DNA of 63,878 nucleotides from Patescibacteria group bacterium (GTDB taxonomy: Bacteria > Patescibacteriota > Minisyncoccia > Phycocordibacterales > Phycocordibacteraceae): positions 1 through 63,878 of the forward strand of contig JAZKIS010000010.1 in NCBI GenBank assembly GCA_040384725.1, in the 5' to 3' direction. The position numbers and the translations under genes are program-made. Position 1 is the first letter of the stretch, and each line of letters opens with the position of its first letter. A model generated the notes under the pieces. It ran no database searches. It saw only the letters and a list, made by a program, of their open reading frames with translations, and was not told where the DNA came from. Below, piece by piece: positions 5,826 through 61,900 of the stretch.

Positions 5826-7793
5826 ATGCAACCAAAGAAAGATATCGAGTACGAAGGGCCGATAACCATTATCAAGACCGGAAAAGGATTCTTCACGTTC
5901 GACCCGAACGAGGAGGACATGTTCATCACGGGCGAGAACCTGGGCGGCGCCTTCCCGGGCGACCGCGTAAAGGTAGTGTTCATAGGGAACGACACCGACA
6001 AGCGCACCGGAAAGGCCAGGCCTGCCGGCAAGGTAGTAGAAGTCGTCGAGCGCTCGAGGGAGACCTTCGTCGGGAAGCTCGTCGAGAACAAGGAGGAGAA
6101 TCTAATCATGATGATTCCGGACTGGAAGAAGATGTACGTTCCGTTCGTGGTTAAGGGCGAATCACTCCCTATCGGGCACAAGGTGGTCATCCGCTTCAAG
6201 GGATGGAACCAGCATCAGCCGTACCCGTGGGGCGAGCTCGAGGAGATCATCGGCCCCGCCGGCGAGCACGAGACCGAGATGCGCGCGCTCGCCTTGTCCC
6301 AGGGCTTCCGCTCTGACTTCCCTCCTGGCGTACAGACCGAGGCGAAGTATCTCGAGGAGCACGGCCGCCAGATGCTTAAGGACGGCGCAGACCAAGGTAT
6401 AGCGGCAGGTACCCGCAAGGACTTCCGCGGAACTCCCACCTTCACCATCGATCCGTTCGATGCGAAGGACTTCGACGACGCGCTCTCGGTTAAGACGCTT
6501 CCGAACGGGAACTACGAGATCGGCGTGCACATCGCCGACGTCTCCCATTTCGTCGTGCCTGGCACTCAGATCGACAACGAAGGCCGGAAGCGCGCAACCT
6601 CGGTGTACCTCGTGGATCGAACGATCCCGATGCTTCCGCATATCCTCTCGACCGATCTCTGTTCCCTGAATCCGAACGAGGACCGTCTCTCCATGTCGGC
6701 AGTGTTCGAGCTCGACAAGGAAGCGGGTATCGTCTCCCGCTGGTTCGGTCCAACGGTTATCCACTCCGACAAACGCTTCACGTACGAGGAAGCGCAGGGA
6801 GTGCTCGACACGCAGGACGGCATCATGCTCGAAGAGCTCAACCTCTTGAAGATGCTCGCCGATAAGATCCGTGCGCGACGTATCGCTCGAGGCGCTATCG
6901 CGTTCGACACGCCTGAGGTTAAGGTTCTCCTTGATGAGAACGGGAAGCCCGTGGATATCGTCGCCAAGGAGCGTATCGACACGATGCTCGTTATCGAGGA
7001 CTTCATGCTCCTCGCGAACGAGGCGGTTGCGCAGTATTTGAGCGAGCAGGTAAAGAAGATCAAAGGCGCGAGCATCTATCGCGTACACGAGTCGCCGGAC
7101 GCAGACCGCATCGAGAACCTGTCACAGTTCCTCAAGGTTATGGGGTACGAGCTTCCGGTGCTCGCAGGCAAGGTGAAGGGCCAGGACATCAACGCGCTCC
7201 TTGAGAAGGTAGTGGGCAAGCCCGAGGAATACCTCATCAAGGTCGCTGCGCTCCGTTCGATGGCGAAGGCGGTATACACCACGAAGAATGCAGGGCACTT
7301 CGGCCTCGCGTTCGAGTTCTATACGCACTTCACCTCCCCTATCCGCCGGTATCCGGACCTTCTCATCCACCGCCTCGTGAAGCACTTCACCGTGAACGGC
7401 GAGTTCTCGAACGCGGAGAAGGCCGAGCTCGATGAGCTCGCGGTGCACTCGAGCGAGCGCGAGGTTGCTGCAACGGAAGCGGAACGCGACTCCATCAAGA
7501 TGAAGCAGGTGGAGTACATGATGGAGCACATCGGCGAGGAGTTCGATGCCGTTATCTCAGGCGTCTCCGATCGAGGGCTCTACGTCGAGCTCAGGGAAAG
7601 CCGTGCCGAAGGCATGATCCGGGTTCGCGACATCGGTGACGATTACTTCGTCTATGACGAGAAGCGGTACCGCCTCGTGGGCGAGAAGACGAAGACCGAG
7701 TACGCGCTCGGCGATCCGATCCGCGTGAAGCTCATCGATGCGAGACTCGCTGAGCGAGAGCTCGACTTCCAGATCATCAAAGCTGCAGCATAA
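5826..7793 (+). CDS. rnr: Ribonuclease R (RNB family 3'-5' exoribonuclease)
   Basis: I moved the start to ATG 5826 (MQPKKDIEYEG...). RNB motifs are present (TIDPFDAKDFDDALSV, HFGLAFEFYTHFTSPIRRYPDLLIHR), followed by a C-terminal S1 domain. Confidence 0.9.
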   Translation: MQPKKDIEYEGPITIIKTGKGFFTFDPNEEDMFITGENLGGAFPGDRVKVVFIGNDTDKRTGKARPAGKVVEVVERSRETFVGKLVENKEENLIMMIPDWKKMYVPFVVKGESLPIGHKVVIRFKGWNQHQPYPWGELEEIIGPAGEHETEMRALALSQGFRSDFPPGVQTEAKYLEEHGRQMLKDGADQGIAAGTRKDFRGTPTFTIDPFDAKDFDDALSVKTLPNGNYEIGVHIADVSHFVVPGTQIDNEGRKRATSVYLVDRTIPMLPHILSTDLCSLNPNEDRLSMSAVFELDKEAGIVSRWFGPTVIHSDKRFTYEEAQGVLDTQDGIMLEELNLLKMLADKIRARRIARGAIAFDTPEVKVLLDENGKPVDIVAKERIDTMLVIEDFMLLANEAVAQYLSEQVKKIKGASIYRVHESPDADRIENLSQFLKVMGYELPVLAGKVKGQDINALLEKVVGKPEEYLIKVAALRSMAKAVYTTKNAGHFGLAFEFYTHFTSPIRRYPDLLIHRLVKHFTVNGEFSNAEKAELDELAVHSSEREVAATEAERDSIKMKQVEYMMEHIGEEFDAVISGVSDRGLYVELRESRAEGMIRVRDIGDDYFVYDEKRYRLVGEKTKTEYALGDPIRVKLIDARLAERELDFQIIKAAA

Positions 7794-7799
7794 GAAAAC

Positions 7800-7825
7800 G
7801 CCGCTCTGTTTCCAGGGCGGCTTTT
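7800..7825 (+). terminator. Weak terminator after rnr
   Basis: GCCGC, 12-nt loop, GCGGC, then TTTTCGTT. It sits between the convergent rnr and 7828..8121 genes. Confidence 0.35.
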
Positions 7826-7827
7826 CG

Positions 7828-8121
7828 TTATCCTTCCGACTCGTCCGGCCGTCTATGACTCATCAGGTCGTCGAGGGAATAGACGCCGCTCATCCAGAGA
7901 CAGCCCTGGACGAATCCTAGCCAACGCATGGCCTTCTCAATTCTTCCTTCATGGATGAAGATCTCCATCTTCGGAAGCATCCCGCAGCAATGCGCGAGAG
8001 GGTCTTCTCCTTGCTTGAAAATGACCAGCTCTTCGTGCGGATAGTCTCTCGGCTCGACATTCATCGCGACGAAGCGGCTGCGATACATACGCACCACTTC
8101 AAGTATCTTCTCCGGTGTCAT
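7828..8121 (-). CDS. Hypothetical 97-aa protein
   Basis: Tracked ORF (MTPEKILEVVRMYRSRF...) in the same orientation as the gdh-GFA genes. I see no recognisable motif. Confidence 0.5.
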   Translation of the reverse strand: MTPEKILEVVRMYRSRFVAMNVEPRDYPHEELVIFKQGEDPLAHCCGMLPKMEIFIHEGRIEKAMRWLGFVQGCLWMSGVYSLDDLMSHRRPDESEG

Positions 8122-8191
8122 CCGATACTCCTTTCTACGGATACCGCTCCGCTCTTCCGCTACTATACAGACCTCAGAAACCTTGTCGATT

Positions 8192-8545
8192 CTATGCGTT
8201 CTTTCCGTCGTACGGCATCCGGTTCAAGGCCCCGAGATCGATCCCGTCTATCGTGCGCACGTTGATCGCCACTGCAGGAGTCCCGTCCGGATTGCTCCCC
8301 CTCCCGAAGACCTGTACGCCGCAGTCCGAGCAGAACAAGTGCTCGATGACATGCTTGTTGAAGCGATAGGTCTTCAGCTCTTCCTCGCCCTGGAGGATCC
8401 TGAATTTCTCGGGAGTCGTGAACTGGAGCAGGAACCCCTTTATCTGGCAGTGCGAGCAATTGCACTCGATAACCGGCTGGGTGAGGTCGAGCTCTACTTC
8501 GTACCTGATATTCCTGCAGTGGCAGGCGCCTTCGTATGTTTCCAT
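8192..8545 (-). CDS. GFA/CENP-V family Zn-binding protein
   Basis: I moved the start to ATG 8545 (METYEGACHCRNIRYEV...CNCSHCQIKG...FCSDCGVQVF). This is the Cys pattern of the glutathione-dependent formaldehyde-activating fold. The upstream part of the tracked 170-aa ORF overlaps gdh. Confidence 0.85.
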   Translation of the reverse strand: METYEGACHCRNIRYEVELDLTQPVIECNCSHCQIKGFLLQFTTPEKFRILQGEEELKTYRFNKHVIEHLFCSDCGVQVFGRGSNPDGTPAVAINVRTIDGIDLGALNRMPYDGKNA

Positions 8546-8549
8546 ATGT

Positions 8550-9785
8550 CTACGATACCACTTCCTTCGACGCATCAAGGATGCGCGTGAGGGCGAGCGC
8601 GTATGCCGCTTCGCGGAGCGTGATGCCACGCTCGTGCGCGAAATCAGCGACGTCCCGGTACGCGTCGCGCATCGTCTGGCGAAGCCGGTCCGTGACGCGC
8701 TCATGCGTCCAGACCTCGTCAGAGCGGTTCTGGAGCCATTCGAAATAGGAAACCGTCACCCCGCCCGCGTTCGCGAGTACATCAGGCACTACGCCGATCG
8801 CACGTGCGGTAAGCAGTGCGTCCGCTTCAGGCGTCACCGGACCGTTCGCAACCTCGAGCACTACGGTTGCCATAACGGAGCCTGCGTTACGCGAGGTTAT
8901 GGCTTCCTCGAGCGCAGCCGGGATAAGGACGTCGCAGGCGCTCTCGATAACGGCGTCAGCGTTCGCAGGCGTCCCGTACGCAGTCAGGTCATGCACCGAC
9001 TTCCCGGTCGCCTTCTCGTTTAGGATCGCATCGACGTCGAGGCCGCCTTCGTTCACGAGCGTGCCGTGGCTGTCTGCAAGCGCCACGACCTTCCCGCCAT
9101 GCTTCTCAACAAGACGCGCTGCCTGCGCGCCTGCGTTCCCTGCGCCCTGCACGGCTACCTCGATACCTTCCATGCTGCGGTGCTGGTCTTCGATAAGCGC
9201 CTCGAGCACGTAGATCGCGCCGTCCGCGGTTGCGGTGTCGCGACCGAGGATTCCCCCGTTCTCAAGCGGCTTTCCGGTTATCATCGCCGGCGCGTTGGCG
9301 CCCGTGACGGTCTCGTACTCGTCGAGCATCGCGGCCATGATAGCAGGGTTCGTATAGACGTCAGGAGCCGGTACGTCCGTGTCCGGCCCGAGATTATCCG
9401 CGAACGCGCGGACGTAGGCGCGCGCGACGCGATCAAGTTCAGATGCAGAATGTTCTTTCGGATTGATCGTAACGCCGCCCTTCGCTCCCCCGAACGGTAT
9501 ATCAACAACTGCACACTTGATAGCCATCATGGCTGCCAATGCTGAGACCTCGTCCTGGTCCGCGTCAGGATGGAAGCGGATCCCTCCCTTGTACGGACCC
9601 CTCGCGTTGTTGAACTGCACCCGGTACGCCGGATAGGTTGATGTGCTTCCGTCGTCGCGGGTAATCTCAAGGGTAGCCGTCAGCACCCGGTCAGGCGCCA
9701 TGAACGTCGCACGTTCTTCCTCGGTTAGCTTCAGAAGATCTGCGGCCTTCTGAACGTTCTCTTTGAAATAGTCGAATGCGGCCAT
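8550..9785 (-). CDS. gdhA: Glutamate dehydrogenase (Glu/Leu/Phe/Val dehydrogenase family)
   Basis: ...NNARGPYKGGIRFHP...IPFGGAKGG... is the family signature. A Rossmann GAGNAG motif is also present. Confidence 0.93.
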   Translation of the reverse strand: MAAFDYFKENVQKAADLLKLTEEERATFMAPDRVLTATLEITRDDGSTSTYPAYRVQFNNARGPYKGGIRFHPDADQDEVSALAAMMAIKCAVVDIPFGGAKGGVTINPKEHSASELDRVARAYVRAFADNLGPDTDVPAPDVYTNPAIMAAMLDEYETVTGANAPAMITGKPLENGGILGRDTATADGAIYVLEALIEDQHRSMEGIEVAVQGAGNAGAQAARLVEKHGGKVVALADSHGTLVNEGGLDVDAILNEKATGKSVHDLTAYGTPANADAVIESACDVLIPAALEEAITSRNAGSVMATVVLEVANGPVTPEADALLTARAIGVVPDVLANAGGVTVSYFEWLQNRSDEVWTHERVTDRLRQTMRDAYRDVADFAHERGITLREAAYALALTRILDASKEVVS

Positions 9786-22035: not shown

Positions 22036-24003
22036 TTATCCTGCGACCACGCCGAGGGCGCGCGTAAGCGCCATCTTCACGCCGGTCATGCCAGCTGAGT
22101 AGCTGCCATCGACCGCGGTCGTGAGCGAGGTAACGAGGCGCTCCAGGTAGGATGGGTGGCATCCGTTCGTGAGCTCCGCGATGTCAGGATGGCAGGTGGT
22201 GCCATCGATGCAGGCGCGGTACGCATCATCAAGCGCGCAGGCTGCGTTCGAGACGAATGCTTCAGTGTCCTCGCCCTGGCGTGCCATGGAGCGAATCATG
22301 CCGAAGACGGTATCGCGGTCTCCGTTGAGGAGCGCGGCGATGAAGTCACGGACGTCTGCGTTCATCGGAGCGGCCACAGGGGCTGCTGCCGGAACGTAGC
22401 GCGCTGGCGCTGCCGGAGCTTCCTCGCGGACAGACTGCATAACCTCCTCACGAATCGGTGCAGGGGCTGGTGCCTCAGGCACGTGCTTCTGCTCGATCTC
22501 GCGAGAGAGTCCCTTAACAATGTCGTCTATGGTGAGGCCTTCGCCTGCTGCGAACGAACGGAATCCGTCATGCGCGCTGTAGCCGGTAGGCTTTGCAGGG
22601 GCTGCCGGTGCCGCGTGCGCGCTGTGCGCTGCTGCATGAGCGACAGGCTCGCTATGTCCGTGACCGGTAGGTGCCGGCGGCTCGCTGTTGAGCGCCTGCT
22701 TCACGTTGCCGCCGAAGCGCTTGGCGCGTCCGAAGGCGAACGGGACAGCATTGAAGAGGACGAGGTACGCGAGTGCTGCGCTCCAGCCGACAAGCATGAT
22801 CCAGTAGATCGCGGTTCCCGCAGGACCGAGCTCGAGACCCGTATACGGGACCTCAGAGAGGTACACGAACGAAAGAGGCTCTTCGAGCGGCTGGGTGAAC
22901 GAGTCGAGGACGACACGTGGCGTGCGGCGACCGCCGCCTCCGCCTCCTCCACCTCCACAGTTAGAGGTACAGGTTGGCGATTCGATAACGACCGTAACCT
23001 GACAGTTGCCGTTCGATGGCGCTCCTGGAACGGTTGCGGTGTAGGTCGTGTCCGAAGTCGGATTGACGACGGTTGAGCCGCTCGAAACCGGCGTTACGGA
23101 GCCGACGCCATTATCAATGATGATGGATGCGGCATTTGACGTAACCCACGAGAGCGTTACCGCGTCTCCAGAGCGAATACGTGTCTTGTCTGCCGTGAGG
23201 CTGACACACATAGGTCCCTGCTGGATCGGCGTGACCGTGACCGTCGTCTGACAGTTAACGGAACCTGTTGCTCCCGTAACGGTCGCTATGTAGGTCGTCG
23301 TCTGGGTCGGATTCACGATACGTGATCCTTCGGCGGTCGGCGTAACGATGCCGATGCCGTTATCGATCGAGATCGAGGTTGCGTTCAGGGTCTTCCATGC
23401 AAGGTTAACCGGGTCACCAGCATTGATGACGCTCGGGGTACCCGTGAGGAACACACACTGTGCAGGAACCTGGGTCGTTGTGACGACCACGGCAGCCTGA
23501 CAGTTAACGGAACCCGTTGCACCGGTAACGGTAGCGGTGTAGGTCGTGTTCGTCGTCGGATTAACAACCACAGAACCAGCCTCAACAGGCGTTACAGAGC
23601 CAACACCGTTATCGATCAAGATCGAGGTAGCGTTGCGGGTCTGCCACGCGAGGGTAACCGCCTGGCCAGGCGTTATGGTGCCGGGAGTTGCAGTAAGGAA
23701 TACACACTCAGCGCTCGGCTCCTCAGTTGGAGGAGGGGGCGGAGGAGGTGGAAGAGGAGGGGGTGGTGGTGGTGGAGGGGGCGGTGGTGGTGGCGGAGGG
23801 GGCGGTGGTGGTGGCGGAGGGGGCGGTGGTGGTGGTGGTGAGCAGCACGGAGGAAGCACCTGAGCCATGATCCGGTCAGGTGAGGTCATTCCAGTCGCAA
23901 CCGCGAGCGCCATACCGACCGAGAGGGTCGCAAGCACGGCGAAAAGGCCCACGGCGATCGGGCGCGACTTCACGTAGCTGATCTGCTTGTTGATTGATTC
24001 CAT
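22036..24003 (-). CDS. Surface protein with a multi-part architecture including an internal sortase-like signal
   Basis: 655 aa. Order of parts: N-terminal TM anchor (IAVGLFAVLATLSVGMALAVATG); polyproline stalk (28 Pro + Leu + 8 Pro); three Ig-like repeats (C(V)FLT...TL(A/S)W.T.NA(T/A)SI.IDNG.G.VTP...TTY.ATV.GA...NCQ); a Gly9 run; LSEVPYTG followed by a hydrophobic helix and GRAKRF; then a ~260-aa His/Ala/Pro-rich tail. Confidence 0.85.
   Translation of the reverse strand: MESINKQISYVKSRPIAVGLFAVLATLSVGMALAVATGMTSPDRIMAQVLPPCCSPPPPPPPPPPPPPPPPPPPPPPPPPPPPLPPPPPPPPTEEPSAECVFLTATPGTITPGQAVTLAWQTRNATSILIDNGVGSVTPVEAGSVVVNPTTNTTYTATVTGATGSVNCQAAVVVTTTQVPAQCVFLTGTPSVINAGDPVNLAWKTLNATSISIDNGIGIVTPTAEGSRIVNPTQTTTYIATVTGATGSVNCQTTVTVTPIQQGPMCVSLTADKTRIRSGDAVTLSWVTSNAASIIIDNGVGSVTPVSSGSTVVNPTSDTTYTATVPGAPSNGNCQVTVVIESPTCTSNCGGGGGGGGGRRTPRVVLDSFTQPLEEPLSFVYLSEVPYTGLELGPAGTAIYWIMLVGWSAALAYLVLFNAVPFAFGRAKRFGGNVKQALNSEPPAPTGHGHSEPVAHAAAHSAHAAPAAPAKPTGYSAHDGFRSFAAGEGLTIDDIVKGLSREIEQKHVPEAPAPAPIREEVMQSVREEAPAAPARYVPAAAPVAAPMNADVRDFIAALLNGDRDTVFGMIRSMARQGEDTEAFVSNAACALDDAYRACIDGTTCHPDIAELTNGCHPSYLERLVTSLTTAVDGSYSAGMTGVKMALTRALGVVAG
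23728..23838 (-). repeat. Imperfect 18-nt tandem GGN/CCN array encoding the polyproline tract
   Basis: Plus strand: ...GGAGGGGGCGGTGGTGGTGGC GGAGGGGGCGGTGGTGGTGGC GGAGGGGGCGGTGGTGGTGGTGGT... This gives 37 consecutive CCN/CTT codons on the coding strand. Confidence 0.9.
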
Positions 24004-24009
24004 AGCTAA

Positions 24010-24038
24010 TATATAACACGTTTAATAATCCTTGTCAA
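24010..24038 (-). promoter_or_regulatory. Near-consensus promoter abutting the start codon (leaderless candidate)
   Basis: Minus strand: TTGACA (24038-24033), 17 nt, TATATA (24015-24010), 6 nt, ATG (24003). Confidence 0.55.
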
Positions 24039-24121: not shown

Positions 24122-25243
24122 TTAGCGAGACGTCGCGAGACCGAGCATCTGGCGTTCTGCCTGCCTGTCGGCTGCCCAGAACGCGAGGCCCTTCGGACCG
24201 CTCAGCGAGTGACCGTCGCTCACGGCTTCGTCGGACCTGTAGTAGCCCCGAGCATGCCATTCACGACCGACCAGCTGATAGTCCTGCTGCCACCGGAAGC
24301 CGGCGGCGAAGGAGCTCTCGACCTGACCCTGCTCGGTCCTGTACTTGAGGCACAGGACCAGCAGCTCGTCCGGAGACAAGCGGATCTGGTAGCGACCAGG
24401 CGAGTCGAGCGGGATTGCCCCGTCCGCCACCTGTTCCCTGCCGAGCGCGCGATTCACGTCAGTGAGATCGCACGGCCGGCCGATGCAGTTGTCCGGGATC
24501 ACCTGCCAGCGCGCGTTCGGCGAATCGGGCTCGTAGAGCCGCGACACACGTCGATACGCGAAGCAGGGGTCCGTCTCTTCCTCGTAGCGCGCCCAGACGA
24601 CGGCGAATTCCCGCGGGTTGCGGACTTCGATATCGACATAGACGCAGACGATGTCGATACGCTCACCCACCGGGTTCGTGCACTTTCCCGCGAGCACAGG
24701 CCGGCCCGTTGCCGGGTTGACCCATGCGCACTCGCCGTCTTCGAAGGACCGGGTCATGCCGTTCAGGTCGGTCTGGCCGAGGCCAGGACCGCGAACGATG
24801 ATGCGGTCCATCTGGAACACGCCGTCGAGATCGCAGTTGAGGGCCAGCGTCCGGAGTTTCTCTGCGAGATTCTCCAGGGTCCAGCCGCCGTGCGGATCCT
24901 TGTCCTGGAAGCTTTCCAGGTAGTTGATCGCCGCGGCGCAGGAGCCGTCAGCGAGGCACTTGGCCTCGTTGATCTTGGACCTGCCAGTGGGATCGGTCAG
25001 GAGCGCGCGGTCGATGAGATCCGCGAGCTGCCTGGGGTTGTCCAGGCCGTAGTAGTAGCCGGTGTACCGGACCTGCGGCACGAGGGCCGGAGGTTCGATG
25101 ACAGCAGCGACTGCGGCCTCGAGCTCGGTGGTGGCCACGGCTTCGACCAGAATTTCTTCCGGCAGTTCCGTGGTGGTTGCGTTCGCCGCCGTCGCGCACC
25201 CGAGAACGAGCAGCGCGGCGGAGGACATGAGAACGGTTCTCAT
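24122..25243 (-). CDS. Cys-rich secreted protein, probable lipoprotein
   Basis: MRTVLMSSAALLVLG|CATA is a lipobox-like signal. The protein has 11 Cys. The 361-aa plus-strand ORF 24209..25294 is R/A/V/G-rich antisense noise. Confidence 0.75.
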   Translation of the reverse strand: MRTVLMSSAALLVLGCATAANATTTELPEEILVEAVATTELEAAVAAVIEPPALVPQVRYTGYYYGLDNPRQLADLIDRALLTDPTGRSKINEAKCLADGSCAAAINYLESFQDKDPHGGWTLENLAEKLRTLALNCDLDGVFQMDRIIVRGPGLGQTDLNGMTRSFEDGECAWVNPATGRPVLAGKCTNPVGERIDIVCVYVDIEVRNPREFAVVWARYEEETDPCFAYRRVSRLYEPDSPNARWQVIPDNCIGRPCDLTDVNRALGREQVADGAIPLDSPGRYQIRLSPDELLVLCLKYRTEQGQVESSFAAGFRWQQDYQLVGREWHARGYYRSDEAVSDGHSLSGPKGLAFWAADRQAERQMLGLATSR

Positions 25244-25344: not shown

Positions 25345-26019
25345 CTAGTTCGCGAGCGGATAGCTCTCTACAAGGTCAGCGACGACGATGAAACGCGAGG
25401 TCTTCTTCCCGAACGAATCGCACGTTGCGAGCGTGAGCGTGTGGCCTTCCGCGGTAAGCGGGATGGCCGCAGACTCAGCGTCCGCCTCCGCGACCTGCGT
25501 CACGGCGTATACGTACGTCATGGTCTCGCTATGCACCATGATCTTGTCTCCCTTCTTGAGGTTCTGGATCTCGTTGAATGCCTTGAATGCCTCGTTGTTC
25601 ACGATAGGCAGATAGCTCGAGTGCCCGAAGAGGATCGTGTTCCCTGCCTCGCCGAGCTTCGCGGATGTCGGGTAACGGACCGCTCCCGTAAGGAGCGCCT
25701 CGTCGAGCACCGCGACGCTCGTCGACTCAGGGTTCTTGATCTCGACATTGATGCCGACCTCAGGAATCTCCACGCGAACCGGATTCTCAGGCGCGCTCAG
25801 TATGACTCCCGCAGCGAGCGAGCTGCCCGGGACCGTAACCGCGTCAGCGACCGTCTTCGTTGGAGCCTCCGGCACGATATCGAACGTCGCGAGCGTCGCG
25901 AACGATACGAAAAAGACGGCCAGGAAGGTGGCCAGGAAGCTCCACTTCTTAGCATAGGCGCGTCCGAAGGCGCGGATAAGCTGTACGGTCTTGTTAATTG
26001 CGGTCATAGGGTCTTGCAT
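25345..26019 (-). CDS. Sortase-family transpeptidase
   Basis: It has an N-terminal TM anchor. The catalytic residues are His (ILFGHSSY), Cys (TLTLATCDS, the TLxTC motif) and Arg (TSRFIVVADL). Confidence 0.9.
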   Translation of the reverse strand: MQDPMTAINKTVQLIRAFGRAYAKKWSFLATFLAVFFVSFATLATFDIVPEAPTKTVADAVTVPGSSLAAGVILSAPENPVRVEIPEVGINVEIKNPESTSVAVLDEALLTGAVRYPTSAKLGEAGNTILFGHSSYLPIVNNEAFKAFNEIQNLKKGDKIMVHSETMTYVYAVTQVAEADAESAAIPLTAEGHTLTLATCDSFGKKTSRFIVVADLVESYPLAN

Positions 26020-26087
26020 ATCATTACACTATAGACCCGAATTGTCAAGGCATCCTTGCAGTGTCTTGCCCGTGTCATCTTCTCTTC

Positions 26088-26151: not shown

Positions 26152-26180
26152 TTGACAGACAATAACCAGTGTGGTAAACA
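26152..26180 (+). promoter_or_regulatory. Candidate extended -10 promoter for the CARDB gene
   Basis: TTGACA (26152-57), 17 nt, TGgTAAACA (-10 at 26175-80). The ATG at 26189 is 8 nt downstream. Confidence 0.4.
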
Positions 26181-26962
26181 GCATGCATATGGAAACGACA
26201 ACAATACGGACAACCAGCGGAACCGGCCGCCGCGCTGCGGTGAACGGGCTCGCTATCGTGGGCTTCATCGTGCTCGTTATTATCGGCATGGCGCTTGCGG
26301 TATACGCAGCGCGTTTCGTGCCAAAGGCCGTCTCGAACATCGGTTCGGCTGCCGTCTACCTCTCGTCTCAGGTCTTCTCTGACGAGGGCGGCGAGACAGA
26401 CCTCGTCGTCGTGCCTCCTGCGGAAACCGTACCGTTCGGAGACGATGTCGTCGTCGCAACCACTACCGCAACGACCACAACCACGACTACCGTCACTCCT
26501 GGAGCTCCGGTAACGAATCCTCGTCCTGGTACTCAGACCACCGTCGTAACGACCGTAACCGGTACTGCTCCTGCTAACTACTCAGGCCTCCCTGACCTCG
26601 TCGTTGAGAACGTAACGACCGGCTACCTAAACTCTGTTGACACAAGCACCTTCCGTTCTTCGAACGAGGTCCCTGATGGCAAGCGCGGTGCGGTCAAGTT
26701 CACGGTTGCGAACCGCGGTACCAACATCTCGCAGCGCTTCGACTTCGAAGTCGAGCTCCCGACGAGCCGCAGCTACACCTACAAGTCCAAGTCGCAGCAG
26801 ACGCTGCGTCCTGGCGAGCGCATCGAGTACGTCCTCGGCTTCGATCAGGCGCGCGAAGGTAACGACCGCACCATCACCATCACAGTTGACGCGGGTCGCG
26901 ACATCAGCGAGTCCAACGAGAACAATAACGACCGTTCCGTAACTGTCGACATCGAGCGCTAA
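26171..26962 (+). CDS. Membrane-anchored CARDB-domain surface protein with a Thr-rich linker
   Basis: TM AVNGLAIVGFIVLVIIGMALAVYAA, then a TTTATTTTTTTVTPG linker. CARDB-like features follow: LPDLVVENV...TVANRGTNIS...ISESNENNNDRSVTVDI. The start is uncertain (GTG 26171, ATG 26183 or ATG 26189). Confidence 0.8.
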   Translation: MVNSMHMETTTIRTTSGTGRRAAVNGLAIVGFIVLVIIGMALAVYAARFVPKAVSNIGSAAVYLSSQVFSDEGGETDLVVVPPAETVPFGDDVVVATTTATTTTTTTVTPGAPVTNPRPGTQTTVVTTVTGTAPANYSGLPDLVVENVTTGYLNSVDTSTFRSSNEVPDGKRGAVKFTVANRGTNISQRFDFEVELPTSRSYTYKSKSQQTLRPGERIEYVLGFDQAREGNDRTITITVDAGRDISESNENNNDRSVTVDIER

Positions 26963-52908: not shown

Positions 52909-55900
52909 CTACGAGGTAGGTTCTGGCGCCGGAGCCGGGGCAATCGGCTCAGGTTCAGGGGTAGGTTCAGGCTCGGGGGTCGGTTCTGGCGCTGGCTCAG
53001 GAGTTGGTTCAGGGGTCGGTTCTGGTGTCGGCTCTTCGGTAGGCGGCTCGATCGGATCCGTTGGAGACTCAGGAGTTGGTTCAGGGGTCGGTTCTGGCTC
53101 AGGAGTTGGTTCTGGTTGCGGTTGCGAGAGGTCTATAACCGTACACTCCCCTTCGCGGATATTCTGCTGGCCGTTTCGCATCGAGAGGCAGTACGGCTCA
53201 CCGGTTACCTCGTCATAGAAGGTTATGCCGGTCGGCTTCTCGGCGCTTCCGATCGTAAGACGCTCTGCAATGAGGTCCACCGCGGACAGGAGGCCGTTGC
53301 GGATGCTGAACTTGTCAATAATCTCGAACATGCCCTCAGCCATCGGCATGCCGGTCGGCGCGCTCGCTGCGAGCTCGAGCTCCGCGAGTCGGGTCTCGAT
53401 AGTCGCGAGGCGCTCGAATACGAGGTCAGTACGCTCAGAGATCATCTGCATGCCTGTTATGGCGTAGCTCGCCATCTTATAGAGGTCCGCGCTTCCGTTG
53501 GTAAGGACCTCGTTCGGAAGCTCTTCGTCGAAGCTCACGAGATAGAGGTTCGCAGAGACCGTCCCCGTCTCTACGCTTGCTGATGCGAGGTCTCCTATAA
53601 AGATGCCTGATTCAGAGACCGTGAGGGTGCCGGCAATGGTTGCATCAGAAGATACTTGAAGTGCGTACATCGCAGTATTCTCCGCCGCCGGCGCAATAGA
53701 GAGCGTACGCACATTGAGCTCGTTCACGCCTTCAACGAGGTACGGTATGAAGTCGAGGTACGAGACGCCGAGGTATCCCCTTTCAGCATCAACGATCTTC
53801 GCTGAGTTCGGGAGCACGGCCTGTACGTCCTGTGCGAGGAATCCAACCTCAGGACGGTTGCTGCCGATCATGTTGTACGTCTTTCCGTTAATTGCGGAGA
53901 GTACGGAGAACGGGTTCTCAATATCCTGGATATTCTCCTTGAGGCGGCGGTCTGAGACGTCGGTTATGGAGCCGGTGTACTCGATATCGCCGGTTACGTC
54001 GAGGGCGACGGATGGCGCGGTGTTATTGATACCAACATTTCCGCTCTCAAGGACGCTGAACACTTCGACGCCTCCTGTCTCGAAGAGATTGAGGATGTCC
54101 GTGGCACCGGTGGACTGGACAGCGAACCTCGAGCTGGTGGTGCTTGTGCCTACGCCGGTGTTCGTGCCGGAGAAATAGGTATTGCCAGCCGAGACCTGCA
54201 GATACGAATTGGTATTGTTCCATTGGATATAGGCGCGCTGCGCATCTGCCTGCCTGAAGCTCAGGTACGGGTTTCCAGTGGAATGCGAGTCAATCTTGAG
54301 TAGTGTATCCGCCGCCGAATAGAGGTGGAGCAACGCATTCGGAGTGGTAGTGCCGATACCGACGTTGCCCGAGTGGTATGCCGTTCCATCGGTCGCGAAC
54401 ACGTGCCTAACAGCCGTACCTCCCGAGGCGGCAATCACGAAACTTGAAAGAGAACCTCCTTGGGCTCCTGTTGGAGACCACACGAGCTGGCCGGTATGGC
54501 CCGAGAATCCTGTCATGGAGTTTGTGATAAGCGTTCCCCATGCACCAACGGCACTTCTACCGAGCTGCAACTGCTCCGATCCCCAAACATCGAGAGGCTT
54601 GTTAGGCGTTGTGGTGGCGATACCGACGTAGCCTGCCTCAGTTATAAGCATACGGGTGTTGAGCGTTCCGTTCTCGGCAGTTATGAATGCCAGGTTGCCA
54701 TCGTCTCCGGACGTACCCCTGCCTCCGGAGATGCGCGCAACGGAGTTGTGGTTGTAGTTCGATTCATAGAAGTCTATATGCGCAACCGCGCCGCCTGCAT
54801 TGTTGTTCGAACCGGAAAGCGTAAGCGTGGACTGTGCAAGACCTGCTGTAGCGACATGGAGAAGGCTCAGTGGCGTGGTGGTACCGATACCGACGTAGCC
54901 TGCATTGGTTATTCTCATCGCCTCTATCTGACCCGTGTTTGCCTTGTATACATCGAACGCGAGGCCGGTTCCTACAGGACCTGACGCCTCCGTCGTTGCA
55001 TACATTCCTCCCAGAGTAGTGGTAGTGACCTGGCTCGTTATTATCGGGTTCCTTGTTCCTATAGAGCCGAGAGGATTGTTCACCGAAAGAATCGTATTCG
55101 GTGCTGAGTTGCCGATACCGACGTTGCCACTGGTACTGACGCGGACTTTCTCAGCACCGTCAGCGAATAGTGCTAGCGCGCTTCCTGGGTCTCCGCCGAA
55201 GTATCCGACACCTGACGCGAGGTAGCCGGCACGGAGGATGTAGTTCGTATTATCGGTAAGCGTAAGCGCGTTCGCGCCAGCCGCTGCGGTGCGTGAAGAG
55301 ATGCCGTTCGCGCTTGTTGAGACGACCTGGAGCGCATAGGAGGGGTTTGTAATGCCGATACCGACGTTGCCGGAGGAAAGGATAGTCATGCTTTCAACAG
55401 GAGTGTTAGCCACGGCGTAGGTAAAGAAACTGAGTCGGCTAGTGTTTCCCGTTGCCACTTCCATGACCGTACCGATTCGCGCGCGCGGCCCACGAAGCCC
55501 GACATCCTCACTACCGAACGTAATTGCCGTGTTTGGATTTACCATGTCCCACGTGCCGCCACTTGTAGTGTCGTAGATATAGATACCGTCTCCCGTTGCT
55601 GTACCTCCAGAGATAGCGTTCGACGCGAACGCTATGGATAGCTTTCGATCTGCTGTCGTCGTGCCGATACCCACGTTCCCTCCCGTGGTAGCAAGATAAG
55701 TAGCGCCAGTCGTCGTGATCTGGGTGGTCGAGGCGTTTCCGGTAACGGTGAGGAGAGAGCCGTCGAAGGTGAGGTTAGCCTCGTCAACGAGCGCTGAGGT
55801 TCCGTTGCCTGTGATCAGGCGGTTGTTGGTGAAGGTTGAGGCACCGGTACCGCCGTCTGCCACAGGCACGTCCGTACCGCCCGCGCGGTACACGAGGTTG

Positions 55901-58900
55901 CCTTCGATGTTGAGGTTCCCTGCGCTTGCGCGTGCGAGCGTGGTATCGGAGGCCGCACCGAGCTCTATGGTTCCCGTAGTGAACGTATTCGAGGTTCCGA
56001 GCGAGAACGAGACATTCGAGGTTAGGAGTCCCGTGGAGTGCGTGATAGTAGCATTACCGTTGTTGAAGTTAAGGACGCCGCCTGACGCGAGGAAGAGGTC
56101 GGCCCACATGAGCGTTCCGGTGCCGAGCGCGTTTCCGTCGCTAGTGATAGGAGAGAGCGCAGTACCCGTGAGTGACACCTCGCCCGTGCTGTTAACCGCG
56201 AAGCCAAGCGTGCTTGCCGCCGGGAGGTACACGCCGTTAGTAGGAACGGTCGAACTGGTCGGGATGAAGGAGTTTGCGGTCAGCGGCACGTTCGACGTGA
56301 GCGCGCCTGCGGAATGCGTGAGCGTAGCGTTGCCGTTGTTGAAGTTAAGGACGCCGCCTGACGCGAGGAAGAGGTCAGCCCAGCTCTGGGTTGCGCTGCC
56401 GAGCGCAGCGACATCGTTCGTGAGAGGAAGCAGCGCTCCACCGAAGGTCTGAGCCTGGCTCCAGGAGTTCGCGGTTGTAGTGCCGAAGGCGAGAGAAATA
56501 ACACTTCCGGATACCTGTACCGGATAGGTTCCAGTGTAGGTTGTACCGCCGCCAGTGATACAGGTAGTGCCGTCGGTGCTGAAGCACGATGCGCGAACGG
56601 GGCCGGTGAAGGTTGAGGTTGCGGTTGAAGTTGCAGTAATAGTGCCGGCGAAGTAACCGCTACCGTTTACAGTGAGGAGTGCATGCGGAGAGGTGGTGCC
56701 GATACCGACGTTGCCGTTAAGCAAAGTCTGCGTGACGCTCGTATTACCTATCACAACCTGGTTACTAGCTGTGGTGTACGCTCCGTTACCGATTGCCGTT
56801 GAGTTAGATGCTGAGACGAGCTGAGAAGGGTTGTTACCCGCGCTGTATCCGATGAATGTGTTCAGGGTTCCCGTGGTAACACTAAAGCCAGCTTGTCCTC
56901 CAAGCGCTGTGTTCTGATATCCTGAGGTAACACTGAAGAGTGCGGTATCTCCCACGCCGGTGTTGTAGTAATTAGACGTCTGCGCTGAGTAGCCGGCACG
57001 GTATCCGACGAATACGTTGTTTGTTCCTGTGGTAAGGGTTGTACCTGCCTCCCGGCCTATGAATACGTTACTGCTTCCTTGCGTAACCGCGAATCCGCTC
57101 AGCGTGCCGAAGAAAGCATTACTGTCGCCAGACGTGATGCTGTACCCAGAGCGATATCCGACCATGGTGTTGTTGTTCATAGACGTACCGAACATGGCGG
57201 TTTCGTTTCCGATTACGATGTTCTGCACGCCCGTGATCGGCGTAACGAAGGAGCCGCCTGAGTGGAACCCGATAAAGATGTTGTCGTTCACGGTGTTAGC
57301 GGCACCCGCATCAACGCCGAGATTGGTGTTGTAGTTCCCCGTCTGGTTAGCGAAACCAGACTGGTACCCAATGTTCGTATTAGTTGTTCCAGTAGTGTTT
57401 GAATACCCAGCAGCATATCCAAGGTCGGTACGCGCATATCCGGTGGTGTTATTCTGTCCGGCGCCAGAACCAATGAAAGTGTTCTGTCGGCCCTGCGTCG
57501 TGCCGAGCGGAGTGTTTGCCAGTCCGGCATTCTTTCCGATGAACACGTTGGTCGAGAAGTCCGAATGTATGCGAAGAAGTTCCGCACCTAGGGTATCGTT
57601 TAGCTTAATAAATGTTGTCGTTGTCGCGCCTTGCAGAGTAAGGAGCGAAGTAGGCGTCGTCGTGCCGATACCCACGTTCCCTCCCGTGGTAGCAAGATAA
57701 GTAGCGCCAGTCGTCGTGATCTGGGTGGTCGAGGCGTTTCCGGTAACGGTGAGGAGAGAGCCGTCGAAGGTGAGGTTAGCCTCGTCAACGAGCGCTGAGG
57801 TTCCGTTGCCTGTGATCAGGCGGTTGTTGGTGAAGGTTGAGGCACCGGTACCGCCATACGTAACTGCAACCGCGGTTCCCTGCCATACACCCGTTCCAAT
57901 GGTGCCAACCGATGTGAGGGAGGAACCGGTAACACCAGAGCCGAGCGTGCTGCCGCTGAGCACGGAGGTGCCTGCAATCTGATACGAGTCGCCGCTCGCA
58001 AGATCAAGACCCGTTAGTCCGAAGTCTGCACCGAGGACGCCAGAGTACTTGATCTCGAGAGTGTCGTCTTCGGCGTCGAGAATGATACCCGACGTGGTTT
58101 GTGTCTCAATTCTGAGGTTCGCGCCATCGAAGAAGATACCGGCATCCGTACCTGCGCCAAGTGTAATGGCGCCTGCGGCATTGTATGCCGAACCGTCCAC
58201 GTCGATGATGAAGCGGCCGCCAGTGGTGATGTTTGCGATGCCAGTGTCGACGGCACCACCATTCCAAGTACCAGAGGTGATGGTGCCGACGGTATCGATA
58301 TCAGAGCCAACGAGCTTGCTTGCCGCGATGGAGCCCGCGAGCATGCCGTTGGTAACCTTGAGGGCGCCGATGGTTGTCGTAATAGCGGTAGTGCCAGAGC
58401 CCGTGACGTCGCCCGAGAGCGTGATGGTCTGGTTGCCGGTTAGATAGTCGGTACCCGCAACCGCCGGAATAACCGAGCCTGATGCATTGGTCTTGAGGAG
58501 CGAGGACGTCACGCCAGAGATCGCGAAGTTCGTGGTGGTTGCGTTCGTCGCAACGAGGCTGCCGAAGGTCTGGGTGCCGGCCCAGGTGTTTGAGGTTGTT
58601 GTGCCGAAGGCGAGGCTTATGGCGCTTCCTGATACAACAACGGGATACGTTCCGGTGTAGGTGGTGCCGCTTGTGAGACAGACACCTCCAACTGCGAAGC
58701 AGCCGGAAGAGATGCTGTATCCGCCGACACCGCTCTTCGTGGTGGTGGCGTTGTTGAAGAAGTTAGTTCCGGTTCCGGTTCCCCCAATCGAGAGGAGGGA
58801 TCCAGGGGTTGAAGTGCCGATACCGACGTTACCTGCCGCAAAGACGGTATGTCCGCTTCCTGACGACTGAGGATTTATAGAGAGGTTAGTACCATCGTAT

Positions 58901-61900
58901 GTGATACTCGCCTGCTGAGTTTCTCCGAACATCAGGTAGGCAGTATTTTCGTCGATGTAGAGGTCGCCATTCGCATAGGCCCTGAAGTTAGCGGACGTTT
59001 GCGTTGCGTTGCCAAGCCAGAAATCATCGCCCGATCCTGTAGTTTTAATATCTCCCGCTGAACTGATGTCGCTTGTTGCCACCAATAGGTCGGTAGTAAC
59101 CGTTCCTGTGAATGTTGGCCCTGCACTGAACACCAGGTTGCCACCGTCAGGGCCCGGAGTAAATCCAGTCTCATCGGTAAGGATGGCGCCGAGCTCGGCA
59201 GAGGTGTCGATAGAAGAAGAAGTGAGGTAGTCGGTACCCGCAACGGCTGCGATAACTGAGCCGGATGCATTGGTCTTGAGGAGCGAGGATGTAATGCCGG
59301 AGATTGCGAAGTTCGTCGAAGTCGCATTCGCGAACGAGGCATTGCCCGAGACCGTAAGCGTGGAAAGCGTCCCAACGCTCGTAAGGGAGGAGGCGAGGAC
59401 GTTCGAAGCGAGGGTGGCTCCCGTGAGGGTGCCGGCAGGCGCGATAACAACCGCGGTGCCGGCTGCCGTAATGAGGCCCTTGCCGTTAACGGTGAAGGTC
59501 GGGATGGCGGTAGAAGAACCGAAGGAGCCGGTGTTCGAGTTAACGGTTGCGAGCGTCGCTGCCGCTGAGCCCGGGCCGGACGCCGTGACGTCGCCGGTGA
59601 GGGCGGTTATGTAGTTCCCTGCTGCTTGGTAGTCGGTACCGGCGACGGCTGCGGAGAGGACACCTGAAGTTCCCTTGATAAGGCCGGTGAGGGTACCGAT
59701 GGTTGCAGATGGCGTGAAGAGTGCGCCGGCAGAAGAGATGGTGGTGCTTGCCGTCTGGCCTGCAGCGAAGGTGTTTGCGGTAAGTCTTCCTGAGAAGTCG
59801 TTCGTCGAAGTCGCATTCGCGAACGAGGCATTGCCCGAGACCGTAAGCGTGGAAAGCGTCCCAACGCTCGTAAGGGAGGAGGCGAGGACGTTCGAAGCGA
59901 GGGTGGCTCCCGTGAGGGTGCCGGCAGGCGCGATAACAACCGCGGTGCCGGCTGCCGTAATGAGGCCCTTGCCGTTAACGGTGAAGGTCGGGATGGCGGT
60001 AGAAGAACCGAAGGAGCCGGTGTTCGAGTTAACGGTTGCGAGCGTCGCTGCCGCTGAGCCCGGGCCGGACGCCGTGACGTCGCCGGTGAGGGCGGTTATG
60101 TAGTTCCCTGCTGCTTGGTAGTCGGTACCGGCGACGGCTGTCTGTACCTGGCCCGTACCGTTACCCTTAAGGATGCCTGAGAGTGTCGTTGAGCCCGTAC
60201 CCCCATTCCCAACCGGGAGCGTTCCCGTAACGCCGGTGGTAAGAGAGACGTTCGTGATGGTGTTGTTCGAACCGCTGATGGTCTTGTTCTGGAAGGTCTC
60301 GGTGCCAAGGAGCGTCGCGAGAGTACCGGTTGTCGGGAGCGTGACGTTCGTAGTGCCGGTCTGGGTGAGGGTAAGGGCGAAGTTGCCTGAGGTAGTGAGG
60401 TTGTTGCCGAGGGTGATGGTCCTGCCGGTGTTCGCGACGCCGGTACCGCCGTACTGCCCTGCTATAACGGTGCCATTCCAAGTACCAGAGGTGATGGTGC
60501 CGAACTCTAGATTTCCAAAAGCATCAATTATCAAAGAACTGTTACCGTAGGAGAATTCTCCATTACCATCATTGTATTGAGCAATGCTTCCCCCGATCGA
60601 ATCATATATCCCTGTAACAAAGTTCTCCTCGTTCCCAGCAGAGAGGATTAGGTCGCCCGCACCGTTAATACCGTCCGCTGTTATAAGTGCTACCGCATTA
60701 ATAGTACCGAGTGACGAGACCGTACCTGCCGTAAGGACTCCGCTAATGGACGCGGTTCCCGTCGCCGTAAGGTTTGCGAGAGATAGATTTCCCGAGAAGA
60801 GGCCGTTGCCTTGAACTGACAGGAGCTGTGAAGGCGTCGTAGTACCAATGCCGAAATTACCGGCACTGGTAATAACCGCTCGCTGCGTATTGTCTGTACT
60901 GAATGCGACGCTCGTTGTTGCGGGGAAGAACATGCCGGCAGTTGTTCCGGGGCCCGCATAGACTGGGTCTGAGGCTGTGCCGATATTAGTAGCAGCATAG
61001 TACGGACTTTGCGTGAATTCCGTTGCGGTAACTTGAGGCGCAACAAACGATCCATGAGCATCGAATTCGTAGGTGTGGCCATGCACTGCCGAATCACTCA
61101 CGTAGAGGTATTGCGAGTGGTCCGCATTGTCATACCAGAATCGGGAACTGGTTGTCAGGTCATCGTAGTTTTGGAATAGGATCGACGGATTCCATAGCGC
61201 ACCTACGATCAAAGAGTCGACGGGTGCCCCACCGCTTGTTCCTGCACTAAGATTTCCTACCCGTGCGACCCCCCACACATCAAGCTTAGTGCCCGGCGTC
61301 GTCGTCCCGATACCCACGTTCCCTCCTGTGGTAGCAAGATAAGTAGCGCCGGTCGTGGTGATCTGGGTAGTCGAGGCGTTTCCGGTAACGGTGAGGAGAG
61401 AGCCGTCGAAGGTGAGGTTAGCCTCGTCAACGAGCGCTGAGGTTCCGTTTCCGGTTAGGAGACGGTTGTTGGTGAAGGTGGCAGCACCCGTACCCCCATT
61501 CCCAACCGGGAGCGTTCCCGTAACGCCGGTGGTAAGAGAGACGTTCGTGATGGTGTTGTTCGAACCGCTGATGGTCTTGTTCTGGAAGGTCTCGGTGCCA
61601 AGGAGCGTCGCGAGAGTACCGGTTGTCGGGAGCGTGACGTTCGTAGTGCCGGTCTGGGTGAGGGTAAGGGCGAAGTTGCCTGAGGTAGTGAGGTTGTTGC
61701 CGAGGGTGATGGTCCTGCCGGTGTTCGCGACGCCGGTACCGCCGTACTGCCCTGCTATAACGGTGCCATTCCAAGTACCAGAGGTGATGGTGCCGACGGT
61801 ATCGATATCAGAGCCAACGAGCTTGCTTGCCGCGATGGAGCCCGCGAGCATGCCGTTGGTAACCTTGAGGGCGCCGATGGTTGTCGTAATAGCGGTAGTG

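Follow-up and report, generated by a model that had tools for sequence, protein, structure and literature searches.

A candidate sortase substrate of Patescibacteria with a putative sorting signal in the interior of the protein

Introduction

LPXTG sorting signals are tripartite, consisting of the motif, a transmembrane (TM) helix and a basic tail (PMC3237569). A sortase adjacent to a single target is a signature of dedicated sorting systems (Haft 2011, PMC3237569), and the Gram-negative 'marine' sortase TIGR03784 has such a neighbouring LPXTG target (PMC3237569). In Streptococcus gordonii, C-peptide remnants of sortase A substrates are reported to be sensed by a membrane histidine kinase (PMC11326707). 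Here we analyse contig JAZKIS010000010.1 of a Patescibacteria group bacterium (assembly GCA_040384725.1, positions 1 to 63,878; this whole stretch of 63,878 nucleotides (nt) is referred to as the window), in which an open reading frame (ORF) of 655 amino acids (aa) plus stop, with an ATG start (22036..24003, minus strand), lies downstream of a sortase gene. The ORF encodes a predicted precursor with two TM helices, an extracellular loop between them and a cytoplasmic tail; the pentapeptide VPYTG stands ahead of the second TM helix (TM2). We consider it on balance probable that the two genes are dedicated to each other as sortase and substrate, and that YLSE-VPYTG-LELGPAG, TM2 and the basic patch RAKRF make up a sorting signal inside the protein.

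With LPXTG/sortase A systems the locus shares an xPxTG motif with invariant P, T and G, the hydrophobic helix and basic patch that follow it, an N-terminal export signal and a Cys-His-Arg sortase. It differs in that the signal is internal, with 225 residues following the patch (95-349 in relatives), in the strong conservation of the TM helix, in the use of I or V at position 1 and almost always Y at position 3 of the pentapeptide, in the length of the first TM helix (TM1), which is perhaps a second anchor, and in the placement of the Pro-rich stalk at the N-terminal rather than the motif end. Pilin-type signals with I or V first include IPNTG (Bacillus cereus BcpB) and EVPTG, QVPTG and VPPTG (Streptococcus pyogenes pilins), and [IV]PxTG is within the accepted range of sortase motifs; no pilin motif, lysine acceptor or E-box was identified in the present protein, which carries immunoglobulin (Ig)-like repeats and shows no sign of polymerisation. 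As in dedicated pairs of the TIGR03784 kind, the enzyme and its presumed target lie within one to two genes of each other, are co-conserved and are lost together. Here, however, the lineage is Paceibacteria, in the Candidate Phyla Radiation (CPR), the sortase falls below all NCBIfam cut-offs, a large domain follows the signal, and the cluster also encodes a secreted protein and a CARDB-domain protein. The S. gordonii C-peptide offers a parallel for a sortase-generated membrane fragment with a biological role, a role that is conjectural in the present case; that remnant is a peptide of about 30 aa without a domain (PMC11326707), whereas the remnant predicted here would be 267 aa, with a folded cytoplasmic domain that is free-standing in sortase-less relatives.

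A search of a literature library returned no relevant paper on PYTG-type motifs, CPR sortase substrates or internal LPXTG signals. To our knowledge, the envelope biology of CPR/Patescibacteria is almost undescribed, and their sortases have no assigned substrates.

Architecture and topology of the precursor

The translated ORF was analysed together with a full-length AlphaFold2 (AF2) model. An N-terminal TM anchor, noted in a previous sequence-only reading of this DNA, was recovered as TM1 (aa 15-38, 23890..23961, minus strand, as are all coordinates in this section), with a hydrophobic segment at aa 15-40 in the scripted read-out, an AF2 helix at 15-38, and K6, K12 and R14 on its N-terminal side; it may serve as a signal-anchor or as a long signal peptide. 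The stalk that follows (23728..23853) agreed to the residue with the earlier description, PPCCS (aa 51-55, 23839-23853) preceding a 37-codon tract of P28 (56-83), L84 and P8 (85-92). This tract is modelled with low confidence, and its DNA consists of 5.1 copies of a 21-nt repeat that mixes CCN codons. Relatives repeatedly have Pro-rich stalks that include a CC doublet. Three tandem Ig-like repeats of about 85 aa had been read next, and self-comparison, AF2 and Foldseek all bear this out: aa 96-344 (22972..23718) comprise repeats of 83-86 aa each, with two Cys each and 60-65% mutual identity, modelled as three beta-sandwiches (99-341) with a predicted local distance difference test (pLDDT) score >90, and Foldseek searches with the ectodomain returned tandem Ig-like domains of adhesins and titin. 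The nine-Gly run lies where it had been placed, at aa 350-358; together with CTSNC (22957-22971) it makes up aa 345-358 (22930..22971), a C-x3-C-Gly-run element found across the family.

The tripartite layout of xPxTG, hydrophobic helix and basic patch proposed in the same reading is present at aa 385-389 (VPYTG, 22837..22851), 397-425 (TM2, 22729..22815) and 426-430 (RAKRF, 22714..22728, on the cytoplasmic face). VPYTG, located 7 residues upstream of TM2, is a candidate sortase site with a predicted cut between T388 and G389; the motif-bearing peptides of the target are YLSEVPYTGLELG and FVYLSEVPYTGLELGP. TM2 has a Kyte-Doolittle hydrophobicity >1.5 over aa 397-425, forms an AF2 helix at 394-438, and carries the family-conserved residues Y400, W401, W407/S408, A412, Y413, F417 and P421. 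That the ORF runs on past the basic patch had also been pointed out, and the 225 residues beyond RAKRF contain a conserved cytoplasmic motif, GFRSFAxGxxLTIDDIVKGLSR (aa 480-501, 22501..22566), in which G480, F481, D494, V496, G498 and L499 are invariant, and end in a compact, confidently folded helical domain (aa 549-655, 22039..22359; 549-654 in AF2, pLDDT >90) that resembles the clamp-loader collar (domain III). The linkers around the short conserved helix at 480-504 are disordered in the model.

Lys and Arg residues lie on the cytoplasmic sides of the two helices, in MESINKQISYVKSR ahead of TM1 and GRAKRF behind TM2, and the intervening loop carries acidic residues, just before TM2, and paired cysteines. 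This charge distribution, together with the cysteines, places VPYTG outside and both termini in the cytoplasm; a prediction of VPYTG in the cytoplasm would have spoken against the sequence-only reading. The stretch 350-390, comprising the Gly run, the linker and VPYTG, is disordered in the AF2 model (pLDDT <50), from which the motif is expected to be accessible. By the positive-inside rule, VPYTG is thus predicted to face outward within a disordered linker.

The public gene call for this ORF (P0001) is 511 aa long, starts at V145 and lacks both TM1 and the poly-Pro tract. Public calls for most homologues likewise begin inside the Ig repeats, and calls across the family are inconsistent: the family is systematically mis-annotated, with gene callers skipping the poly-Pro tract and TM1. 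Since relatives keep the long ORF, including TM1 and a Pro-rich stalk, we take the ATG at 24003 as the credible start.

Cysteines recur at both ends of the loop. Both the Cys-Cys doublet shortly after TM1, present in about 55% of full-length members by a crude count, and, some 35 aa ahead of the motif, a C-x3-C element with a Gly run behind it recur in the family, L001, P0179, P0182, P0189, P0196, P0146 and P0149 among the examples. The four juxtamembrane cysteines might staple the two stalks together or bind metal.

Conservation of the pentapeptide

Searches with the region from the linker to the C-terminus identified 61 close homologues, annotated as Paceibacterota or Kaiserbacteria, and a full HMMER scan of 1.84 billion representatives returned 1253 sequences at E <= 1e-3 and 215 at E <= 1e-30. 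Pfam and NCBIfam searches with the target found no family model, with no NCBIfam match at E <= 0.1, including to the curated LPXTG-anchor model; this is a large uncharacterised Paceibacteria family without a Pfam or NCBIfam model. The conserved module is always C-terminal in the protein, whereas the ectodomain varies, with 86-1282 aa ahead of the motif.

Across 110 distinct loci the pentapeptide conforms to [IVLMTA]-P-[YQFKH]-T-G. P, T and G are unchanged, with all four synonymous codons seen at each, and substitutions occur only at positions 1 and 3. Among the module matches 204 of 228 have a canonical motif, the rest being truncated fragments, short forms lacking the ectodomain, and P0159, which is probably chimeric or mis-called. 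All homologues with an ectodomain retain xPxTG, as the sequence-only reading had anticipated. Information content is highest over L(-3) S Q x P Y T G, where P and G reach 100%, T 94% and Y 91%; some of the non-canonical cases in these figures are artefacts of a loose regular expression. Conservation runs beyond the pentapeptide into L[DE]LGPxGT..YW and specific TM2 positions, and a distant PYTGF subfamily has the same plan with an extra cytoplasmic domain. All homologues spanning this region conserve the motif, the TM helix and the tail, which argues that their combination is not due to chance. A profile of the motif plus TM2, used in a word-indexed protein search, gave one match, which was uninformative.

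One member of 426 aa, P0141, departs from the plan: a sortase-like TM1 is followed directly by VYPSQIPYTG, giving a canonical motif with no ectodomain, and the tail is duplicated internally. Either a recent deletion or an artefact of assembly may account for it.

Linkage of the motif protein to the sortase

The sequence-only reading had placed a sortase gene 1.3 kb upstream on the same strand, and this holds: the gene (25345..26019, minus strand) lies 1.34 kb upstream of the target and encodes a 224-aa protein with an N-terminal TM helix that matches PF04203 with an E-value of 2.8e-22 (79.2 bits, against a cut-off of 26.6). H133, C200 (in TLATC) and R209 are invariant across three sortase orthologues, the protein is 43-92% conserved, and the closest solved structure is SrtA of B. 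anthracis (2KW8). The profile match and invariant residues indicate a genuine sortase, with its catalytic triad intact. It missed all NCBIfam class cut-offs, the best being class E with 54.4 bits against 160, followed by D, C and F with lower scores, and on this basis is unclassified among NCBIfam classes A-F.

Linkage between sortase and signal was judged from gene neighbourhoods, starting from either gene. An alignment of the three sortase orthologues yielded 80 species-representative genome loci. All 53 of these with at least 4.7 kb downstream encode a motif protein on the same strand, the motif lying 1.5-4.5 kb after the sortase with 248-349 aa following it (outliers 95 and 151). Conversely, in a target-anchored set from a metagenome collection, comprising canonical-motif loci with at least 5 kb upstream, a sortase was found upstream in 21 of 22, the sole exception being L111. 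The order sortase, hypothetical gene(s), target is also found in the distant PYTGF subfamily. No canonical C-terminal signal was found in the window or in 1.9 Mb of related loci, which cover only these neighbourhoods, and the only other module-bearing genes in the 1.9 Mb are a second paralogue in L109 and a tail-only gene in L067. This pairing, conserved across Paceibacteria, ties the motif to the neighbouring sortase and suggests a dedicated enzyme-substrate pair.

Locus L111 (7386-8795) was considered as a real counterexample, with a canonical motif and no sortase, and was set aside as a probable chimeric contig. Its upstream genes encode aldehyde dehydrogenase, FixC-like and ferredoxin-like proteins, while thrS lies downstream of the family protein; the N-terminus of the target is replaced by a double zinc ribbon, and the junction falls in the poly-Pro tract.

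Short members as natural controls

Members of 304-325 aa that lack the ectodomain retain an intact TM2 and tail, and in these the pentapeptide is degenerate, reading ISYAG (P0143), ATSTG (P0166), VATLG (P0169) or FPYSG (P0162); in P0153 the sequence is LSAVP------GP, YTGLDL being deleted. In all four short-form loci with available context, L085 (8001-8978), L088 (~6868-7878), L094 (~7956-8927) and L146/147 (4816-5760 in L146), no sortase was found within 5-8 kb. In L085 and L088 the short gene occupies the gyrB-thrS slot otherwise held by the genes for the CARDB protein, sortase, hypothetical protein and target, and in L169 gyrB is directly followed by the short form. Motif, ectodomain and sortase are thus lost jointly, and a two-by-two table of sortase presence (21/1 for canonical against 0/4 for short-form loci) gives a hypergeometric p of ~3e-4, uncorrected for phylogeny.

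Each short lineage shows its own decay of the P-x-T core, with the flanking LS and G(L/I)xLGPxGTxxYW preserved, which argues that selection on PxTG is tied to the sortase and ectodomain rather than to TM2 and the tail. A degenerate motif found only in members that have lost the ectodomain, and the sortase where context is available, is what a sorting signal predicts. In a crude neighbour-joining tree without support values, the short forms occupy three positions.

The short members of L085, L088, L094 and L146 are built as a CARDB N-terminal TM module fused to TM2 and the tail; in long-form loci the CARDB gene lies on the opposite strand.

The TM2-tail module and the C-terminal domain

TM2 and the tail appear to form an autonomous, more widely conserved module with a function of its own. 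In L067, the first family member, with LPYTG and a 151-aa tail, stands right before a second gene that consists of TM2 and tail (~9110-9470, plus strand); this gene starts MNGLVLAPVG, about 2 residues from the predicted post-cleavage N-terminus. The contig contains runs of N and ends inside the gene.

Fusions connect the module with the CARDB protein. In tblastn, P0153, P0169, L088 and L094, all short members, align at their N-termini with the TM region at the N-terminus of the CARDB protein (E 1e-6 to 1e-11). The second paralogue of L109 (8293-10302, plus strand) has a signal peptide and a different ectodomain, then APYTG, TM2 and RIRR, and runs on in frame, without a stop codon, into a complete CARDB protein. 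Fusions in both orders suggest joint action of TM2 and the CARDB TM helix. What comes after the motif-TM2 unit varies, as expected of a cleavable junction: the usual tail, a longer one, one of 95 aa (L082) or a whole CARDB protein (L109).

The 95-aa tail of L082 (10083-11318, Adlerbacteria) ends in VDDFITSQINRARA. The same peptide, DYVDDFI.(A/S/V)QI.., follows the helical domain in the distant members P0182, P0189 and P0196, and may serve for docking in the cytoplasm.

The last ~110 aa of the target superpose on domain III of the E. coli gamma subunit with a root-mean-square deviation of 2.7 A over 111 columns at 19% identity, and the top 46 Foldseek matches in the PDB are all clamp-loader subunits, with a best E of 1.6e-3 and none at <= 0.001. 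The Pfam families DNA_pol3_gamma3 and Rep_fac_C reach a best E of 0.12, in 4 and 2 of 54 members respectively. The tail has no significant sequence or profile match to clamp-loader domain III, and searches of the PDB with sequences and profiles gave no match for the tail or for the 373-aa protein encoded between sortase and target. The target differs from the clamp-loader subunits gamma/tau, delta-prime and RFC in having no AAA+ domains and in being membrane-tethered. The likeness to the collar is a structural lead only and may reflect merely a shared helical bundle. No dnaX is present in the window for comparison with the collar-like domain. Searches of Pfam, NCBIfam, the PDB and the family detected no DNA-binding, kinase or sigma/anti-sigma domain in the tail.

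Proposed processing and alternative explanations

If the locus encodes a dedicated sortase-substrate pair, the precursor would insert into the membrane as a loop with both termini cytoplasmic and with the poly-Pro stalk and Ig-like array extracellular (Introduction and topology above). The membrane-anchored sortase, encoded two genes upstream, would cut T388|G389 in the flexible juxtamembrane linker, and the ectodomain would pass as a thioacyl intermediate to an amine nucleophile, either a peptidoglycan precursor or possibly the secreted co-encoded protein; wall transfer would be only one of several possible fates of the acyl-enzyme. TM1 may be removed or may stay as a second anchor. The 267-aa remnant, comprising G389, TM2 and the tail, would stay in the membrane as a functional protein, its TM helix probably pairing with that of the CARDB protein and its collar-like helical domain probably mediating oligomerisation or cytoplasmic contacts. 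As a complete scheme, in which the sortase splits a looped two-TM precursor into a wall- or partner-bound adhesin and a remnant that pairs with CARDB through TM2 and oligomerises through its collar-like domain, this is tentative, and we consider it somewhat less likely than not.

Several observations weigh against cleavage at an internal signal. Sorting signals stand at the C-terminus, and none of the ~200 family members ends after the basic patch, the shortest continuation being 95 aa. Conservation of TM2 and L[DE]LGPxGT..YW far exceeds that of ordinary sorting signals, and this segment could therefore be no more than a structural element beside the membrane. The Pro-rich stalk adjoins TM1 rather than the motif, the opposite of classic wall-spanning regions. 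The order gyrB...thrS-dnaE is conserved throughout the lineage, weakening any inference from gene order, and since sortase, ectodomain and motif are contiguous, a single deletion could remove all three without a functional link; the short forms may moreover stem from few events, the number of which is uncertain. All of this, together with a conserved and folded tail, would be compatible with the main alternative, an uncleaved two-pass protein, in which YLSQxPYTGLDLGP is a structural or partner-binding element of a receptor or adhesin and the sortase serves other substrates or is linked by gene order only. We nevertheless regard that explanation as unlikely, if well worth keeping in view: the P-x-T core decays separately in each short lineage while its flanks persist, the motif resides in a disordered segment, as do short linear motifs recognised by enzymes, and the neighbourhoods that make up the 1.9 Mb of related DNA hold no alternative sortase substrate.

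A cut might also occur for a different purpose, with the sortase acting as a site-specific protease or regulator that releases the ectodomain or passes it on and, in doing so, changes the state of TM2 and the cytoplasmic domain. Such a device for signalling or maturation would have its analogues in regulated proteolysis of membrane-tethered factors or in the sensing of sortase remnants. A remnant with a conserved, folded cytoplasmic domain that survives as an independent gene and is linked by fusions to the CARDB TM helix would suit such a role, and the sensing of remnants in the membrane has a precedent in S. gordonii SGO_1180 (PMC11326707). The lack of DNA-binding, kinase and sigma/anti-sigma domains in the tail argues otherwise, as does the fact that known sortases resolve the acyl-enzyme mainly by transpeptidation, and we consider this version quite improbable. 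An assembly or frameshift artefact that merged a canonical substrate with a separate downstream gene was also considered, given that poly-Pro and poly-Gly tracts are error-prone, that L111 is probably chimeric at such a tract and that public calls are inconsistent. It was rejected as scarcely conceivable, because the same uninterrupted architecture, with tails of 248-349 aa in frame, is conserved in more than 100 independent assemblies from various species and projects.

A sortase acting on xPxTG is a known class of mechanism; what is new is the internal position, ahead of a conserved and apparently autonomous domain. Sortase signals are defined as C-terminal; the definition would have to widen to admit a conserved internal signal with a functional domain behind it, and the sortase would appear as a maturase giving two products. 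If the complete scheme is correct, sortase processing would mature a transmembrane complex linking the surface to the cytoplasm, and the target would provide both the first natural sortase signal of internal position and the first defined CPR sortase substrate. The pair would give CPR bacteria a concrete candidate enzyme and substrate, and the analysis defines an unannotated family of >1000 representatives that gene callers systematically shorten. With its variable Ig-like ectodomain mounted on a conserved processing module, the protein could plausibly serve these episymbionts for attachment to a host, and for sortase-based ligation the [IV]PYTG specificity might be of interest.

Neighbouring genes and promoters

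Between sortase and target lies a gene for a secreted 373-aa protein of no known family (24122..25243, minus strand), conserved in position but poorly in sequence. Divergent from the sortase is the gene for the TM-anchored CARDB-domain protein (26171..26962, plus strand), whose N-terminal TM module is the one fused to TM2 and the tail elsewhere. The N-terminal 66 aa of this protein (26171-26370 of the window, plus strand) weakly match Pfam DUF5823 (E 0.04), and the sequence AAVYLSSQVF within its N-terminus is reminiscent of FVYLSEVPYTG in the target.

A sigma-70-like promoter, TTGACA-17-AATGAT (26020..26048, minus strand), abuts the sortase ATG and is a consensus match only. Ahead of the target, TTGACA-17-TATATA (24010..24038, minus strand) ends 6 nt before the ATG; read by eye, with the promoter scan silent, it is possibly the target's own promoter, giving a near-leaderless mRNA. 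With -10 elements ending 0-6 nt before the two start codons, the sequences hint at leaderless or near-leaderless transcripts or, alternatively, at a true sortase start slightly downstream, at M5.

Elsewhere in the window, a giant ORF of 3592 aa (52909-63687, minus strand) contains a Peptidase_S74 domain at aa 3245-3294 (E 3.2e-13). Peptidase_S74 is the intramolecular chaperone of endosialidases and tail fibres, and the ORF may encode a giant fibre protein of the cell surface.

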